Origin: Planctomycetota bacterium
GTDB taxonomy: Bacteria; Planctomycetota; UBA8108; SXIK01
NCBI GenBank assembly: GCA_965223845.1
Contig: CBDCXR010000004.1
Span: 4,320,001 to 4,384,000, forward strand
DNA: 64,000 nucleotides
Reading direction: 5' to 3'
Part shown: piece by piece, positions 49,955 to 56,103 of the stretch
Position numbering within the stretch: the first letter of the stretch is position 1
How the letters are laid out: each line of letters opens with the position of its first letter
Position numbers and translations under genes: made by a program
Notes under the pieces: generated by a model
The model's database searches: none
What the model was told of the DNA's origin: nothing
Seen by the model: the letters and a program-made list of their open reading frames with translations, nothing else

Positions 49955-51418
49955 TTAAGCGAAGATGTCGTCGACCACCCGGCCGTGAACGTCCGTGAGT
50001 CGAAAATTCCGCCCCGCGTAGCGATAGGTCAACTTCTCGTGATCGAGGCCGAGAAGGTGAAGGATTGTCGCGTGGAGATCGTGGAAGTGGATCTTGTTCT
50101 CGACGGCGTAGTAGCCGTAGTCATCCGTCTTCCCGTAGCGGAGCCCACCCTTTACGCCGCCTCCGGCGAGGAACATCGAGTTCGCGTGCGGGTTGTGGTC
50201 GCGTCCGTCTTTGTTCCCTTGCTCGGTCGGAGTGCGACCGAACTCGCCCCCCCACCAGACGAGCGTATCCTCGAGAAGTCCGCGTGACTTCAGGTCGCGA
50301 ATGAGTCCGGCGATCGGCTTGTCGACTTCGGCGGCATTCGACGCGTGGTCTTTCCGAAGTCCGCCGTGCTGATCCCACTTGTAGCTGTGCGTGACCTGAA
50401 CGAAGCGGACTCCCGACTCGATGTACCGCCGCGCCATGAGGCACTGGAGACCGAAGTTGCGCGTCTTCGGCTGGTCGATCCCGTAGAGCTTCTTCGTCGC
50501 GTCGCTCTCGCGTCCGAGGTCCTGGAGAACGGGCACTTCGCGCTGCATGCGGAACGCCAGCTCGAACGACGCGATGCGCGACTCGAGCGCGTCGTCGGGA
50601 CCACTCCGCGCGAGGTGATTTCGGTTCAGCTCCGCGAGATAGTCCAGCTCCATCCGCTGCGCGTGCGGCGCGATGTCGGAGTTCGCAATGAACGGAATCT
50701 TCGCCTTCTCGGCCGGAATGCGCGAGCTACCGACGGGTGTTCCCTGATAGTGCGCAGGAAGGAAAGACGACGACCACGCGTTCACGCCTCCGTGCCCGAG
50801 CGTCGGACAAATCGTGACGAACCCGGGAAGATCCTGACTCTCCGATCCGAGACCGTACGTGATCCACGAGCCGATCGACGGGCGCACGAACGTGTCGGAG
50901 CCGGTGTGGAGCTCGAGTAGAGCTCCGCCGTGACGCGAATTCGAGCCGTGGACGGAGTTGAGGAGGCAGAGGTCGTCGGCGACTCCACCGACGTACGGGA
51001 AGAGATCGGAGATCGGGAGTCCGCTCTCGCCGTAGCGACGAAACTCCCACGGCGACGCGAGAAGGTTGCCGGTCTTTCCCGACTGGATGCGCGGCTTCGT
51101 TCCCGGGAACGGTTTGCCGCCGTCGCGCTGGAGAAGCGGCTTGTAGTCGAAGGTATCGACCTGCGACGGACCGCCGTGCATGAACATGAAGATGACATTC
51201 TTCGCACGCGGACGAACGAAGCCTTCACGAGGCTCGAGAGGTCCATGCGTGCGCTCGCGCAGCTTCGCTCCGCCCGGCAATCCCGCGACCGCAGCGTCCG
51301 CCCCGAGGAGTCCGGCGAGGGCGATTCCACCGAAGCCGACACCCGACCGAGCGAGCATTTCGCGCCGCGAGCAGGGCTGCGGCTCGAAATCGAAGCAGGC
51401 GGAACGGCGAGTCGTCAT
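49955..51418 (-). CDS. DUF1501 domain protein (Tat-type leader)
   Basis: SRREML, FMHGGPSQVDTFDYKP, WDQH, EFGRTP, GRDHNP, RLTDVHG. Confidence 0.92.
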   Translation of the reverse strand: MTTRRSACFDFEPQPCSRREMLARSGVGFGGIALAGLLGADAAVAGLPGGAKLRERTHGPLEPREGFVRPRAKNVIFMFMHGGPSQVDTFDYKPLLQRDGGKPFPGTKPRIQSGKTGNLLASPWEFRRYGESGLPISDLFPYVGGVADDLCLLNSVHGSNSRHGGALLELHTGSDTFVRPSIGSWITYGLGSESQDLPGFVTICPTLGHGGVNAWSSSFLPAHYQGTPVGSSRIPAEKAKIPFIANSDIAPHAQRMELDYLAELNRNHLARSGPDDALESRIASFELAFRMQREVPVLQDLGRESDATKKLYGIDQPKTRNFGLQCLMARRYIESGVRFVQVTHSYKWDQHGGLRKDHASNAAEVDKPIAGLIRDLKSRGLLEDTLVWWGGEFGRTPTEQGNKDGRDHNPHANSMFLAGGGVKGGLRYGKTDDYGYYAVENKIHFHDLHATILHLLGLDHEKLTYRYAGRNFRLTDVHGRVVDDIFA

Positions 51419-51504
51419 GACGGGCGTTTCCTCCGTTTCGTCAGCGCACGGCGCGGCGAGAGTCGATCGATCCGGCGACGTCCGGATCTCCGCCGCAGAA
51501 CGGA

Positions 51505-54500
51505 TCAATCAAGGTACACGAACTCGCTCGCGGCGACCAGCACGCGGCAGAGCCCCTGCCACGCGCGACGACGGATCCCATCCGCGTCGCGGGCGTCGCC
51601 GGTGCCCTTTAGCGCGCTCGCGTAGTCGCGAACGAAGGCGAGACCGCGATCGACTTCGTCTGCGCGCGCCGGCCGCCCGTAGAGCGTCCAGTAGAGCGCG
51701 CGAACGCGCGCGCCGTCGTCGAGTTCTCGACGGGCGAGAAGCGACTTCGCCGCGGAGAGCGTCTGCTCAAGGACGATCTTCCCGTTCATCATGAAGAGCG
51801 CTTGCGGCGCCACCGTCGTCGAAGCACGCTCCCCGGCGGGAACGCTCGGGTCGGCGAAATCGAAGGTCTGAAATACCTGATAGACCGCACTGCGAAGAAT
51901 CGGAAGGTAGACGGATCGCCGCGAGAAGTCGTACGTCCCTTCCTTCGAACCGGTGCCGGTGACGTAGGCGCGGTTCTTGTCGGGCATGAGCTGACCGCCG
52001 ATCGCGACGTCGAGCTCACCCCCGAACGCGAGGAGCGAGTCGCGGATTTCCTCAGCGGACAGACGGCGCCGATCGAAACGCCAGCGGAGCCGATTCTCCG
52101 GATCGATCTCGTTCGCGCGCGGGTCGAACTGCGTTCCCATCCGGTAGGTCGACGACGTGAGAATCTCGCGGTGGAGATCCTTGATCGACCACCCGAGCTC
52201 GACGAATCGATTCGCGAGCCAATCGAGAAGCGCCGGGTGCGTCGGACGCTCGCCGAGCCGGCCGAAGTTGTCCGGACTGCGGACGATTCCCTCGCCGAAG
52301 TGCCAGAGCCAAACGCGGTTCACCATCACGCGAGCGGTGAGTGGATGCTCCGGCGACGCGAGCCACTCGGCGAGCTCGAGCCGGCCGCTTCGGTCGCTCG
52401 CGATCGCCGCGGGCAAGCCCGTCGAGAAAACTTCGGGAAACCCGCGCGGCGCGTCCTCCCCAAGCGTGAGGTAGTTGCCTCGGATGTGCACTCGAAGATC
52501 TTCGACCTTGCCGTCGCGAACACCCATCGCGCGGGGGAAGACCGGCTTCGCCTTCTCGAGCTCGTTCTTGTCTTCATCGAATCGAGTCAGCGCCTCACGT
52601 TCCGAAGCGGGGAACAACGCGCGCGGATCCTTTCCGAGCCGAAACGGTCCAGCCTTCACGTCGCTCGCTGCCTTTCGAAGCGCCTCGACGACCGGAGCCA
52701 GCGACGGCGAGCCGCCGCCGCGGAGCGCTTCGGCGAGCTCGGTCAGCTTCGCGTCCCGGTCGGACGGCGAAAGTCCGGCCCACGACCGCCACGGTTCGAC
52801 TTCGCGGAGTGCGCGGACGTGAGCGATCCAGGCGGTCACGAACGCGGGTACGAGAGGCGCGGCCTCGGTTTCACCATCGTCCTTCGCGCGCGGCGACTCG
52901 GCAACGCGGACCAGCAGCACCTTGTCGATGTGCGGAACGGGACCGGCGGTGCGTTCGAGACGAAGAATCGTTCGCTCACGCGCAAGCTCGAAGACGCCTT
53001 CGAGATGCCATCGCTGGTGCTTCGGGTACCACCCGCCCGTGACGCCCTTCGCGCCGTCTTCGAGAACGGTCTTGCCGTCGATCGATATCGCGACCGGACG
53101 GGAGTCGGCGGCAGCGTACCGAAGCTCGAGCTGGTAGCGGCCCGGAGGGAGATCGAGGTCGTACTCGACGAAGCCCACATGGAGAAGAACGCCGACCTTC
53201 GATCCCCAGTTCGTGCGATCGACGGAGAGACTTCCACGCTGAAATGCTTCGGCTTCGAAGAGCGCGCCGCGCCCGCGGAGTGGGCCCGAGGCGAAATCGG
53301 CGGGAGAGATCGTACTGCCGATCGATGCCGAGCCGTCCGCCGGTGCGGGGCCCGTCCGGAGCGCAGTCTGCGCCGCCGCGAACACGTACTCCGCGAGCCG
53401 CGAGCGCGCACCATGGAGAAGCTTCGCCTTCGCGGCGCTCTCTCGCGCCTCGACGTTCCTTCTGATCTCCGAGACGCGCTTTTCGATCGCGGCGAGCTTC
53501 TCGCGGTCGGCGCGGGTCGCGAGCTCGTGCTCGTGCCATTCCGCTACGACCTTGAAGTTCTCCATCGTCTTCGTCGATTTGAAGATTCCCGCAAGGGCGT
53601 AGTAGTCGCGCGAAGAGATCGGATCGAATTTGTGATCGTGGCAGCGCGCACAACCCATCGTGATCCCCATGAACGCACGCGAGAGCGTGTCGACTTGCTC
53701 GTCGACGATATCGAGCTCCATCTTCCGGCCGTCGTCGCACGCGAGCATCTTCGGGCCGATCGAAAGAAACCCCGTGGCGACGCGACGTCGAAACGCGACC
53801 CGCTCGACCTCGTCGTCCGCCGCCTCGATCGGAGGGATCAAATCTCCGGCAATCTGCTCGCGCACGAACTCGTCGTACGGAAGATCCTCGTTGAACGCGG
53901 CGATCACGTAGTCGCGGTAACGAAACGCATTCGCGTAGGCGAGGTTCTCATCGACTCCGTTCGAGTCCGCGTAGCGAGCGACGTCGAGCCAGTGTCTCCC
54001 CCACCGCTCGCCGTAACGAGGCGACGCGAGAAGACGATCGATCGCACGCTCGTACGCTCCCGGATCGTCGTCCGCGAGATAGGCGTCGATCTCCGCGCGC
54101 GTCGGCGGAAGACCGGTGAGATCGAATGTAACGCGACGAAGGAGCGTGAGTGGATCGGCTTCGGGTGCGGGTGCGAGACCGGCCTCCTCGAGGCGCGCGA
54201 TCACGAAGCGATCGATGGGAGAGCGGCACCAAGTCTCCGCGCGGACCGCAGGCGGATCGCTCGCGCGGTGGGCCCGGAACGCCCAGAACTGGCGCGCACT
54301 CTCGAGGTCGAGCGCTTCGGCGGTATCGCGCGGAGCGGCTCCCGCCGGACCGGAACGCGGATCGGGGACGCCGAGCTCGATCCACCGCACAAAATCCGCG
54401 ACGACCGCCGAGGGAAGCTTCCCCGCTGGCGGCATCTGAAACTCCGCGTCGTCGTAGCGGAGTGCGGTGATCAACCGGCTCGCCGCGGGGTCACCGGGTA

Positions 54501-54795
54501 CGACGACCGGACCGCCGTCGCCGCCGGCGAGCAGACCGGCCTTCGAGTCGAGATAGAGTCCGCCGTGCAGTCGTTTTGCGTTCGCGGAGTGGCAGCCGTA
54601 GCACTTCTCGACGAGGACGGGCCGAATCTTCGTCTCAAAGAACTCCCGCGCGCTCGCGGACAGACGATGCTCCGGCTTGCTGGCCGTGAGCTCGAGCGGA
54701 GACGCCGCAGAGATCGTCCAAACGCCAGCCACGAAGAGACACGCGATCGGTGCGTGTCTTCGGACCTTCGACGGAGAAGGAGACGAGAAAACCAA
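51505..54795 (-). CDS. PSCyt1 plus DUF1549/DUF1553 protein with a CBM6/35-like insert
   Basis: FFETKIRPVLVEKCYGCH, ERWGRHWLDVARYADS, CARCHDHKFDP; insert FEAEAF..YQLELRYAAADSRP..PHIDKV. Confidence 0.92.
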   Translation of the reverse strand: MVFSSPSPSKVRRHAPIACLFVAGVWTISAASPLELTASKPEHRLSASAREFFETKIRPVLVEKCYGCHSANAKRLHGGLYLDSKAGLLAGGDGGPVVVPGDPAASRLITALRYDDAEFQMPPAGKLPSAVVADFVRWIELGVPDPRSGPAGAAPRDTAEALDLESARQFWAFRAHRASDPPAVRAETWCRSPIDRFVIARLEEAGLAPAPEADPLTLLRRVTFDLTGLPPTRAEIDAYLADDDPGAYERAIDRLLASPRYGERWGRHWLDVARYADSNGVDENLAYANAFRYRDYVIAAFNEDLPYDEFVREQIAGDLIPPIEAADDEVERVAFRRRVATGFLSIGPKMLACDDGRKMELDIVDEQVDTLSRAFMGITMGCARCHDHKFDPISSRDYYALAGIFKSTKTMENFKVVAEWHEHELATRADREKLAAIEKRVSEIRRNVEARESAAKAKLLHGARSRLAEYVFAAAQTALRTGPAPADGSASIGSTISPADFASGPLRGRGALFEAEAFQRGSLSVDRTNWGSKVGVLLHVGFVEYDLDLPPGRYQLELRYAAADSRPVAISIDGKTVLEDGAKGVTGGWYPKHQRWHLEGVFELARERTILRLERTAGPVPHIDKVLLVRVAESPRAKDDGETEAAPLVPAFVTAWIAHVRALREVEPWRSWAGLSPSDRDAKLTELAEALRGGGSPSLAPVVEALRKAASDVKAGPFRLGKDPRALFPASEREALTRFDEDKNELEKAKPVFPRAMGVRDGKVEDLRVHIRGNYLTLGEDAPRGFPEVFSTGLPAAIASDRSGRLELAEWLASPEHPLTARVMVNRVWLWHFGEGIVRSPDNFGRLGERPTHPALLDWLANRFVELGWSIKDLHREILTSSTYRMGTQFDPRANEIDPENRLRWRFDRRRLSAEEIRDSLLAFGGELDVAIGGQLMPDKNRAYVTGTGSKEGTYDFSRRSVYLPILRSAVYQVFQTFDFADPSVPAGERASTTVAPQALFMMNGKIVLEQTLSAAKSLLARRELDDGARVRALYWTLYGRPARADEVDRGLAFVRDYASALKGTGDARDADGIRRRAWQGLCRVLVAASEFVYLD

Positions 54796-55005: not shown

Positions 55006-56103
55006 TCACGATCCTGGCGGCGGCAGGTCGTACGGAGCGATACCGTCTGAAAGCCGAAACGCCACCGCGAACGGAAACTCGCCCTTGGGCGCATTGCGCG
55101 TATAGCGTCCCTCGCCCCAGTAGTCACCCTTGACGACGACGTCGAAGCGAGCGAGGCGACCGTTCTCGACGAGGACGAATCCGAGAATCTCTGCCTTGTA
55201 GCCTCGATCGCCGGCAGCGCTCTCGAAGTGGACCTTGCCGGTGAGGCGTCCCTCGTCCAGCGTGATCTCGAACGACTTCACCTCGCTCTTTCGCCAGCGG
55301 CCCGGTTCGCCACGAGTGTTGTCGTTCAGCAGCGGAGAGATCCGCTGCTTCAACTCGTCGGGCATCCGCCCGCCCGCGAGTGCCGCGATCTCTTCCTTCG
55401 CGATCCAGAGATGATCGCGCGCGAGCGACTGCTGATGGATCCGTCGAAATCGATCGTCCGGCGGTTCGTATCCGCCCAGCACACGCGACGTCACGAGAAC
55501 GGCCTGGCTGCCTTTCGGTAGGGACCACAGCGGCCCGGCGCTCTCGTGGCCCTCCAAGATCTTCGGCAGACCATCCTTCGGTTCGTGCGCGTCGAGCGCG
55601 CGTTTGAGCAGCTTCCATGCCGCGTCCCCCCTCACGGTATTCGAGTAGGAGAGCAGTTCGGCGGATGGAGTAAAGAAGTAGAGTCCCTGGTTGTAACCGC
55701 TCACCTTTTCGCCGGTCTGGCGGACGAGCTTTTCGAAGAGGACGTACTCCACGTCCTTGCGTCGCCGATGGTGATGCTGGTTCACCGCGACGCTGACGAA
55801 CTTGCTCTTGATCTCTCGCACGAACTCGGCGTCGCCAAAGACCGTCACGCGGTCTGTGATGCCGTTGTTTCACACGCACCCGAGCGGGTGACCGGAGCGC
55901 ACGACCATGAAGACGGGCTTCTTCTCCCGCGAAGCTTGAACGCAAGCCTCCGCGAGCGAGGTCTTCCACGCGATGCTGGACCAGCCCTCTTCCTTGGGGG
56001 GACGCAGCTTCTCGTGGATTCTCGCGAATTCCTCATCGTCGAGCTTGGTCGACGGTTCGAGCGCGGTCTGTCCGAGCAGAATCAGAACGGCGAGCGTGGT
56101 CAT
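55006..56103 (-). CDS. Putative secreted selenoprotein: thioredoxin-like N-terminal domain with a CxU motif, read through TGA 55870-55872
   Basis: ORFs 55870-56103 and 55006-55848 are in the same frame and join as GHPLGCV-TGA-NNGITDRVTVF. A SECIS-like hairpin follows directly. Confidence 0.75.
55823..55869 (-). promoter_or_regulatory. Putative bacterial SECIS element
   Basis: After the UGA: upper stem AGACCG/CGGUCU, loop CGUGA starting 21 nt downstream, lower stem CGGC/GCCG and AAC/GUU. Confidence 0.6.

Follow-up and report, generated by a model that had tools for sequence, protein, structure and literature searches.

A planctomycete gene with an internal UGA, almost certainly read as selenocysteine, from a large uncatalogued family of thioredoxin-fold proteins

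Introduction

A catalogue of prokaryotic selenoproteins from May 2026 lists 119 families and gives a model identifier and a motif for each (PMC13188914, Table 1). For the bacterial selenocysteine (Sec) insertion sequence (SECIS), the same source gives a consensus comprising an apical loop of 3-9 nucleotides (nt), an upper stem of 4-16 base pairs (bp), a G within loop positions 1-2 that is often followed by G or U, a UGA-to-loop distance of 16-37 nt, and a minimum free energy of at most -7.5 kcal/mol. Split selenoprotein candidates from planctomycetes were listed in 2016; the accessible part of that Table S9 names them 'hypothetical' or 'thiol-disulfide isomerase-like thioredoxin' and gives no sequences (PMC4807772). 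Among eukaryotic selenoproteins, SELENON is described in the accessible text of PMC12839072 as carrying an adjacent Cys-Sec pair in the motif SCUG, with Sec at residue 458, near the C-terminal end. The present text concerns a gene on the minus strand of a 64,000-nt stretch of planctomycete DNA, the window (contig CBDCXR010000004.1, 4,320,001-4,384,000), to which all positions refer unless another contig is named.

The stretch from 56103 to 55006 is best explained as one gene for a 365-residue exported selenoprotein, in which a UGA at codon 78, guided by a SECIS-like hairpin, contributes to a C76-x-U78 centre in a thioredoxin fold of the DsbH/UAS/AGR type that is followed by a beta-rich domain; we give this reading a probability of about 0.85. 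The apparent stop codon almost certainly encodes Sec in a redox protein, and the gene is a genuine selenoprotein gene belonging to a large, uncatalogued thioredoxin-fold family. This supports the interpretation of an earlier sequence-only reading of the window, the individual claims of which are taken up where the evidence bears on them.

The reading frame and its internal UGA

It had been claimed that the minus strand reads CAC CCG CTC GGG TGC GTG TGA AAC AAC GGC and that the two open reading frames (ORFs) on either side of this TGA form a single 365-codon frame. The codons are exactly as claimed, and translation of 56103..55009 with TGA read as U yields 365 residues with U78 as the sole internal TGA. 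Translation table 11 splits the frame into a 100-amino-acid (aa) ORF ending in ...GHPLGCV and a 280-aa ORF starting from a GTG at 55848, and the protein database entry from the source genome corresponds to the latter piece (P0002; 100% identity, 77% of the query). The gene comprises the following features.

55006..56103, minus strand: complete selenoprotein gene (translated with TGA=U), 365 codons followed by the stop TGA at 55006-55008
56062..56103, minus strand: putative signal peptide, residues 1-14 (MTTLAVLILLGQTA), cleavage site judged by eye
55876..55878, minus strand: Cys76 (codon TGC), which with Sec forms the C-x-U centre; the column is nearly invariant in two alignments (A1 and A3)
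55870..55872, minus strand: Sec codon UGA, residue 78, in the motif GHPLGCV-U-NNG; TGA is kept in relatives and replaced by Cys in homologues
55006..55848, minus strand: 280-aa table-11 ORF as reported by gene callers, matched by P0002

Orthologues and Cys homologues can be aligned to the 365-residue protein along its entire length. Short hydrophobic N-termini, signal-peptide-like as judged by eye, are found at the same place in close relatives.

Conservation of the UGA codon and the Sec machinery

A six-frame search of 41 related genomes found a match in 29; among the matches listed, 44 of 45 hold exactly one TGA and one holds none. The TGA column is identical, within GHPLGC[TV]-U-[NG]NG, in 20 of 20 loci fetched from this genome set, one of which is cut by a contig end just before the TGA site. 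A sample of 301 genomes from the phylum contained 20 with a match at E<=1e-40, and each of their 21 matches holds one TGA. Metagenomic close relatives (66-78% identity, 10 loci fetched) carry the TGA in all eight loci that cover the site.

Searching the protein database returned 316 homologues, the best 120 of which fall into two length classes, one of ~281-295 aa consisting of the post-TGA part only, the other of ~355-387 aa and spanning 89-97% of the joined protein. The U column is occupied by Cys in all 16 aligned long homologues, which share the motif RSGHPLG[C/S][TV]CNNG. A total of 287 family proteins was fetched, drawn from hit lists and not a random sample. Among the 57 of them that cover the Sec column, this position is C in 40, G in five, S in three, A in three, D in two, and E, N, H, or Y in one each. 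A further 186 of the 287 start at most 22 residues past the Sec column, as expected from the proposal that gene callers split the gene. The source names of the homologues all read "hypothetical protein"; since annotation takes the Sec codon for a stop, public sets contain the family almost solely in this N-terminally truncated form.

Conservation extends to both sides of the codon. In 18 Sec-form orthologues, the 37 residues preceding U are 45.8% identical to the protein of the window; the corresponding values are 33.8% for the remainder of the thioredoxin domain and 44.1% for the C-terminal domain. The proposed Sec codon thus stands on a TGA column kept in distant orthologues, on Cys in full-length homologues, and on one frame conserved upstream and downstream; judged from the aligned sequences, a TGA in one lineage that is matched by Cys elsewhere is the standard Sec signature.

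The source genome (7.93 Mb, 4 contigs) contains all four components of the Sec machinery that the sequence-only reading had named. In a genome profile search, selD (307.8 bits), selB (320.2 bits, or 352.7 including a C-terminal piece), and selA (536.2 bits) score above their curated cut-offs, and the gene for tRNA-Sec (selC) reaches 68.1 bits, likewise above cut-off, and is reported by ARAGORN as tRNA-SeC with the anticodon tca. TGA terminates three of the five neighbouring genes and occurs internally in none of them; it is therefore an ordinary stop codon in this genome. Recoding follows the usual bacterial mechanism. The selD match (L001, contig 4, 5317241-5318161) lies within an 809-aa open frame, much longer than plain SelD, which suggests a fusion protein.

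The SECIS-like hairpin

A hairpin is located just behind the UGA, within the coding sequence.

55836..55858, minus strand: SECIS-like hairpin; core stem 55850-55855 with 55839-55844, loop CGUGA at 55845-55849, two extra pairs below a bulge

The structure AGACCG-CGUGA-CGGUCU has a 6-bp stem, a 5-nt loop, and a folding energy of -9.5 kcal/mol; the apical loop begins 20 nt after the UGA, and its second position is G, followed by U. These values agree with the consensus of PMC13188914 in all four criteria. The hairpin lies at 55839-55855, with two further pairs below a one-base bulge; both its presence and its proposed SECIS character, with regard to placement and consensus, were recovered as first described. 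Rfam models run on 55600-56100 at E<=10 returned nothing relevant, the three rows obtained being miRNA and snoRNA noise.

A hairpin occurs at the corresponding place in every Sec-form orthologue, with stem sequences that differ (e.g. UUGAC/GUCAA, CUCGAC/GUCGAG, GCUGGAC/GUCCAGC, GGCGGGG/CCUCGCC, and GGCGGGCC/GGUCCGUC). Covariation was evaluated over a 7-pair helix in a gapless alignment of 30 orthologue sequences, 29 of them distinct. In the distinct sequences, 84.7% of the cells are paired, compared with 70.3% in shuffles, and registers slid against each other leave 28.6-40.4% of cells paired. Changes on both sides are seen in six of the seven pairs, and the covariation score of 0.449 (versus 0.193) was reached by none of 500 shuffles, so that the covariation analysis that had been put forward as a check on the hairpin speaks in its favour. 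Pair 18-30 connects the third position of a Leu/Val codon with that of a Ser codon and is found as G-C (15), U-A (7), or C-G (6); since it links two third positions, its covariation is not demanded by the protein. The clade of the window has its stem 2 nt out of register relative to the other orthologues and retains 6 bp and a CGUG[A/U] loop, a form present in the gene itself and in eight of eight close relatives. As far as sequence comparison can tell, the conservation of TGA and hairpin among relatives is beyond chance, and the hairpin is real, conserved, and SECIS-compatible.

Protein architecture and proposed function

The AlphaFold model of the protein, built from 35 sequences, has a pLDDT of 86.1 and a pTM of 0.84 and shows two domains.

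55573..55995, minus strand: thioredoxin-fold domain, residues 37-177 (37-178 in the AlphaFold model)
55009..55536, minus strand: C-terminal beta-rich domain of about 180 residues (about 190-365), of an unrecognised family

A strand (residues 64-69) leads into the GHPLGCVU loop, in which His72 is invariant, and a helix (79-87) starts directly after Sec. This corresponds to the earlier expectation of an N-terminal thioredoxin fold with Sec behind strand 1 and at the start of helix 1. The best structural matches are 3f9u, a DsbD-like domain (13.0; rmsd 2.9, 125 aligned), 3ph9 (AGR3; 12.8), 2dlx (the UAS domain of UBXD7; 10.8), and 2ju5 (DsbH; 10.7), and the top match in Foldseek is the Thioredox_DsbH protein 7tkv (E 3.5e-4). 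The C-terminal domain, which the sequence-only reading could not assign, likewise has no clear match to any family or solved fold. At the level of sequence, Pfam at E<=1 gave only PF03190 (13.3 bits against a cut-off of 27, E 0.081) and PF16447, both far below cut-off; NCBIfam at E<=1 gave only NF041199 (residues 45-108; 10.5 bits against a cut-off of 300); and a sequence-profile search of the PDB gave nothing meaningful, its best match (E 0.037) being a 39-residue stretch of an acyl-CoA carboxylase.

In the proposed mechanism, UGA78 would be decoded as Sec by SelB and tRNA-Sec, with the hairpin inside the coding sequence, the CGUGA loop of which begins 20 nt past the UGA, guiding the recoding. 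The mature protein would then present Cys76-x-Sec78 between strand 1 and helix 1 of a DsbH/UAS/AGR-type thioredoxin fold, followed by the beta-rich domain of about 180 residues. Such a protein may act as a periplasmic thiol/selenol oxidoreductase, with a substrate or partner held by the C-terminal domain, and, in the fusions with Ser/Thr kinases and with anti-sigma factors, the same two-domain module may serve as an extracytoplasmic sensing domain. This analysis directly shows the recoding signature, the fold, and how large the family is and of what it is composed; for the function, fold and motif point to periplasmic redox chemistry or sensing.

Family members, fusions, and paralogues

A profile of alignment A3 matched 2844 representative clusters (50% identity) at E<=1e-3, 1237 at 1e-10, and 317 at 1e-30. 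In some members, the two-domain module is placed C-terminal to Ser/Thr kinase (Pkinase) domains (P0146, P0148, P0175, P0245) or to zf-HC2/FecR anti-sigma parts (P0226, P0235, P0239, P0262). The fusions differ in that the redox centre is retained in some and lost in others (A in P0146, G in P0262, D in P0226 and P0235). They suggest an undescribed extracytoplasmic sensing module. One post-Sec fragment, P0285 (593 aa), has an extra C-terminal region of ~290 residues of unrecognised nature.

The source genome encodes two paralogues on the minus strand of contig 4. The first (L056, 73000-77500) has one in-frame TGA in the motif NGHPLGCTUNNG; its start is signal-peptide-like, its C-terminal part is longer, and it resembles the subfamily of loci L036-L039. 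The second (L057:1216-2367, within 334000-338000) encodes 384 aa with one TGA and an adjacent Cys-Sec pair (GDPLDDCU). In an hhalign comparison (98.9% probability, E 1.9e-17), its family is homologous to that of the window across 286 columns spanning both domains; U falls on U, and the partner Cys is shifted by one position. The database relatives of L057 (41 matches) are likewise truncated after the TGA. In another genome (G144, contig 42), two family copies (L048 and L055) stand in tandem on the same strand, both with a TGA and a hairpin of their own.

Three Cys-form homologues from Gemmatimonadota (L040, L041, L042) lack a signal peptide, and all three loci are flanked by asparagine-synthase-like and radical SAM genes on the same strand, a setting that suggests a cytoplasmic biosynthetic cluster. 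Such genes are rare in the sampled genomes of that phylum, with one Cys-form gene in 201: a search for further examples in 201 genomes from the phylum of G326 yielded G326 alone.

Genomic context

Directly downstream of the selenoprotein gene, and on the same strand, a PSCyt1/PSCyt2/PSD1 gene of 1096 aa and a DUF1501 gene of 517 aa together occupy 49955-54795. The two overlap by 4 bases (51505-51508) and represent the usual planctomycete pair. Orthologues do not retain this arrangement: a DUF1501 gene was adjacent in only two of the 35 other loci checked, and the neighbours of 16 Sec-form loci were mutually unrelated, with no conserved partner gene among them.

Contrary evidence and alternative explanations

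Several observations weigh against the interpretation given above. The folding energy of the hairpin is not unusual for DNA of 64% G+C (z = -1.16; 24 of 200 shuffles are equally stable), and a wider stretch of 76 nt gives z = +0.61; the stability of the fold taken alone lies within chance, and the hairpin is thus not thermodynamically unusual. Much of it already follows from the conserved amino acids, as synonymous recodings keep 3.1-5.4 of the seven pairs on average. Recodings that pair at least as well as the observed sequence make up a median fraction of 0.105, a value of <=0.05 is reached in only nine of 34 Sec sequences, and the total folding energy of the Sec sequences is barely unlike that of their recodings (mean z -0.5); the support that this comparison lends to selection on the hairpin is modest. 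Moreover, the three Gemmatimonadota Cys-form genes retain all or part of the hairpin (-12.4, -8.0, and -4.8 kcal/mol), so it is not exclusive to Sec forms. selB is above cut-off in two of these three genomes. The third locus, L042, comes from a genome (G328) flagged as unpublished, and with L042 set aside the control consists of two genes, both with the hairpin. The Cys-form genes are too few to demonstrate that the hairpin is retained for the sake of Sec. In addition, a non-Cys residue (G, S, A, D, E, N, H, or Y) occupies the Sec column in 17 of the 57 covering proteins, which are more distant full-length members, and part of the family is consequently not redox-active at this site. The neighbours vary among orthologues and give no help with function. 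The presence of selenium in the protein is a deduction from its gene, and the function is drawn from fold and motif only.

The strongest alternative accepts a true selenoprotein and assigns it specifically to a bacterial branch of SELENON and not to a separate thioredoxin-fold family. We regard this assignment as doubtful, with the odds leaning against it, and the link between the window family and SELENON as a lead only, somewhat less likely than not to hold. In a feature search of the ESM Atlas, the first match of the Cys homologue P0048 was a eukaryotic cluster named 'Selenoprotein N' (0.91, 199 of 256 features), level with planctomycete clusters of the window family itself, and the paralogue with adjacent Cys-Sec (DDCU), homologous over both domains and encoded in the same genome, is akin to SCUG. 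Scores of at least 0.9 arise by chance 4 to 10 times per 100, and the C-terminal domain alone returned bacterial clusters only. No SELENON-named protein was found among the 59 matches of a thioredoxin-domain profile to longer proteins, among the 41 matches of the Cys-Sec paralogue L057, among the A3 profile matches, or in the database homologue search, all of which could easily miss SELENON; it was also not among the matches of the PDB profile search. The long matches of the profile are the kinase and anti-sigma fusions. Literature searches gave myopathy papers only for bacterial selenoprotein N homologues, a mention of SelN solely inside a cited title when combined with Planctomycet/Gemmatimonad/Verrucomicrob, and nothing bacterial for 'SelN-like' variants. 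The spacing of the motif, the position of Sec, and the domain composition also speak against membership and are compared in the last section. A wider proposal, in which the C-x-U family and the Cys-Sec paralogues would form one large bacterial superfamily and the prokaryotic counterpart of animal SELENON, is tentative and a little less likely still. If it were true, a culturable and assayable bacterial model, with natural kinase and anti-sigma fusions that hint at sensing, could reveal the chemistry of SELENON.

Alternatively, the module could be chiefly a sensor or binding domain instead of an enzyme, with the stand-alone protein reporting or buffering a periplasmic redox or ligand signal. 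The fusions of the complete module to the C-terminus of Ser/Thr kinases and zf-HC2/FecR anti-sigma factors fit this possibility, and several of them (P0146, P0262, P0226, P0235) have neither Cys nor Sec at the centre, so that the module there works without redox chemistry at the site. Stand-alone forms, by contrast, nearly always have Sec or Cys (Cys in 40 of 57 covering proteins, and 186 of 287 being post-Sec fragments), the costly use of Sec argues for catalysis, and no conserved partner gene lies alongside. A primarily sensory role of the stand-alone protein is considered unlikely.

It is very improbable that the UGA is read through as a residue other than Sec, by near-cognate read-through or by a local reassignment to Cys or Trp. 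The Cys forms indicate that sulfur is workable at the site, and the case for selenium is drawn from sequence. Against such decoding stand the full Sec machinery of the genome, the use of TGA as terminator by three of five neighbours and by this gene itself, a hairpin with SECIS features at the right distance, and the lineage pattern of TGA and Cys. Least likely of all is a real stop, with either a pseudogene or a small exported peptide followed by a 280-aa protein from GTG 55848: table 11 does yield two ORFs and the databases do hold the 280-aa piece, but a nonsense mutation would not be retained at a single column in dozens of genomes at 30-47% protein identity, full-length homologues are continuous with Cys at the TGA column, conservation in the protein is highest immediately ahead of the TGA, and the fold requires both pieces, its strand 1 being encoded upstream of the TGA and its helix 1 downstream. 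The single gene with a Sec-encoding UGA is accordingly retained.

Comparison with known systems

Against the Pfam and NCBIfam models of Table 1 of PMC13188914, the protein touches NF041199 alone (E<=1), far under the cut-off, and the four C-x-U rows (NF041203, NF041198, NF041072, PF13192) gave no match; the comparison covers the rows defined by Pfam or NCBIfam, those defined by CDD or PANTHER identifiers lying outside it. Within this scope no row fits, and the family is uncatalogued among the 119 listed. The split candidates of PMC4807772, listed by name without sequences, may include it. Its addition would contribute a C-x-U family with an unrecognised partner domain to the prokaryotic selenoproteome, in which a C-x-U centre is unusual, and with a name for the family many annotations could be put right in Planctomycetota and neighbouring phyla.

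The sole NCBIfam model that touches the protein, NF041199, represents the Trx7/PDZ (seleno)protein, a bacterial selenoprotein already in the catalogue, the N-terminal domain of which resembles Thioredoxin_7. Its motif is CxxU (PMC13188914, Table 1) in contrast to C-x-U here, and it has a PDZ domain, for which the protein of the window has no Pfam match at E<=1. The catalogue row Sec.1/PF13192 shares both the thioredoxin-like fold and the C-x-U spacing; PF13192 does not match the protein even at E<=1, and Sec.1 was compared by its description. With the group of DsbH, Thioredox_DsbH (DUF255), DsbD-gamma, UAS, and AGR-ERp18, the protein has the thioredoxin fold in common, whereas it carries C-x-U and not CxxC, possesses the additional 180-residue beta domain, and matches PF03190 only below threshold.

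The comparison with SELENON, on the accessible text of PMC12839072 and PMC8148124, shows differences as well as likenesses. The sequence-only reading had called the SCUG site of SELENON comparable, a parallel that does not hold in its spacing, as Cys and Sec are adjacent there (PMC12839072), whereas the window family has GC[TV]U and the gene itself reads G-C-V-U-N. Sec lies near the C-terminal end in SELENON (458) and at residue 78 of 365 in the window protein. A membrane anchor and an EF-hand, both part of SELENON as far as these texts describe it, are absent from the window protein, which for the EF-hand has no Pfam match at E<=1. Shared by both would be the setting and the type of domain, since SELENON is a selenoprotein of an oxidising, non-cytosolic compartment whose Sec adjoins a Cys within a thioredoxin-like domain (PMC12839072, PMC8148124, in their accessible parts); if the SELENON lead holds, the bacterial family bears on a human disease protein of still unclear chemistry.

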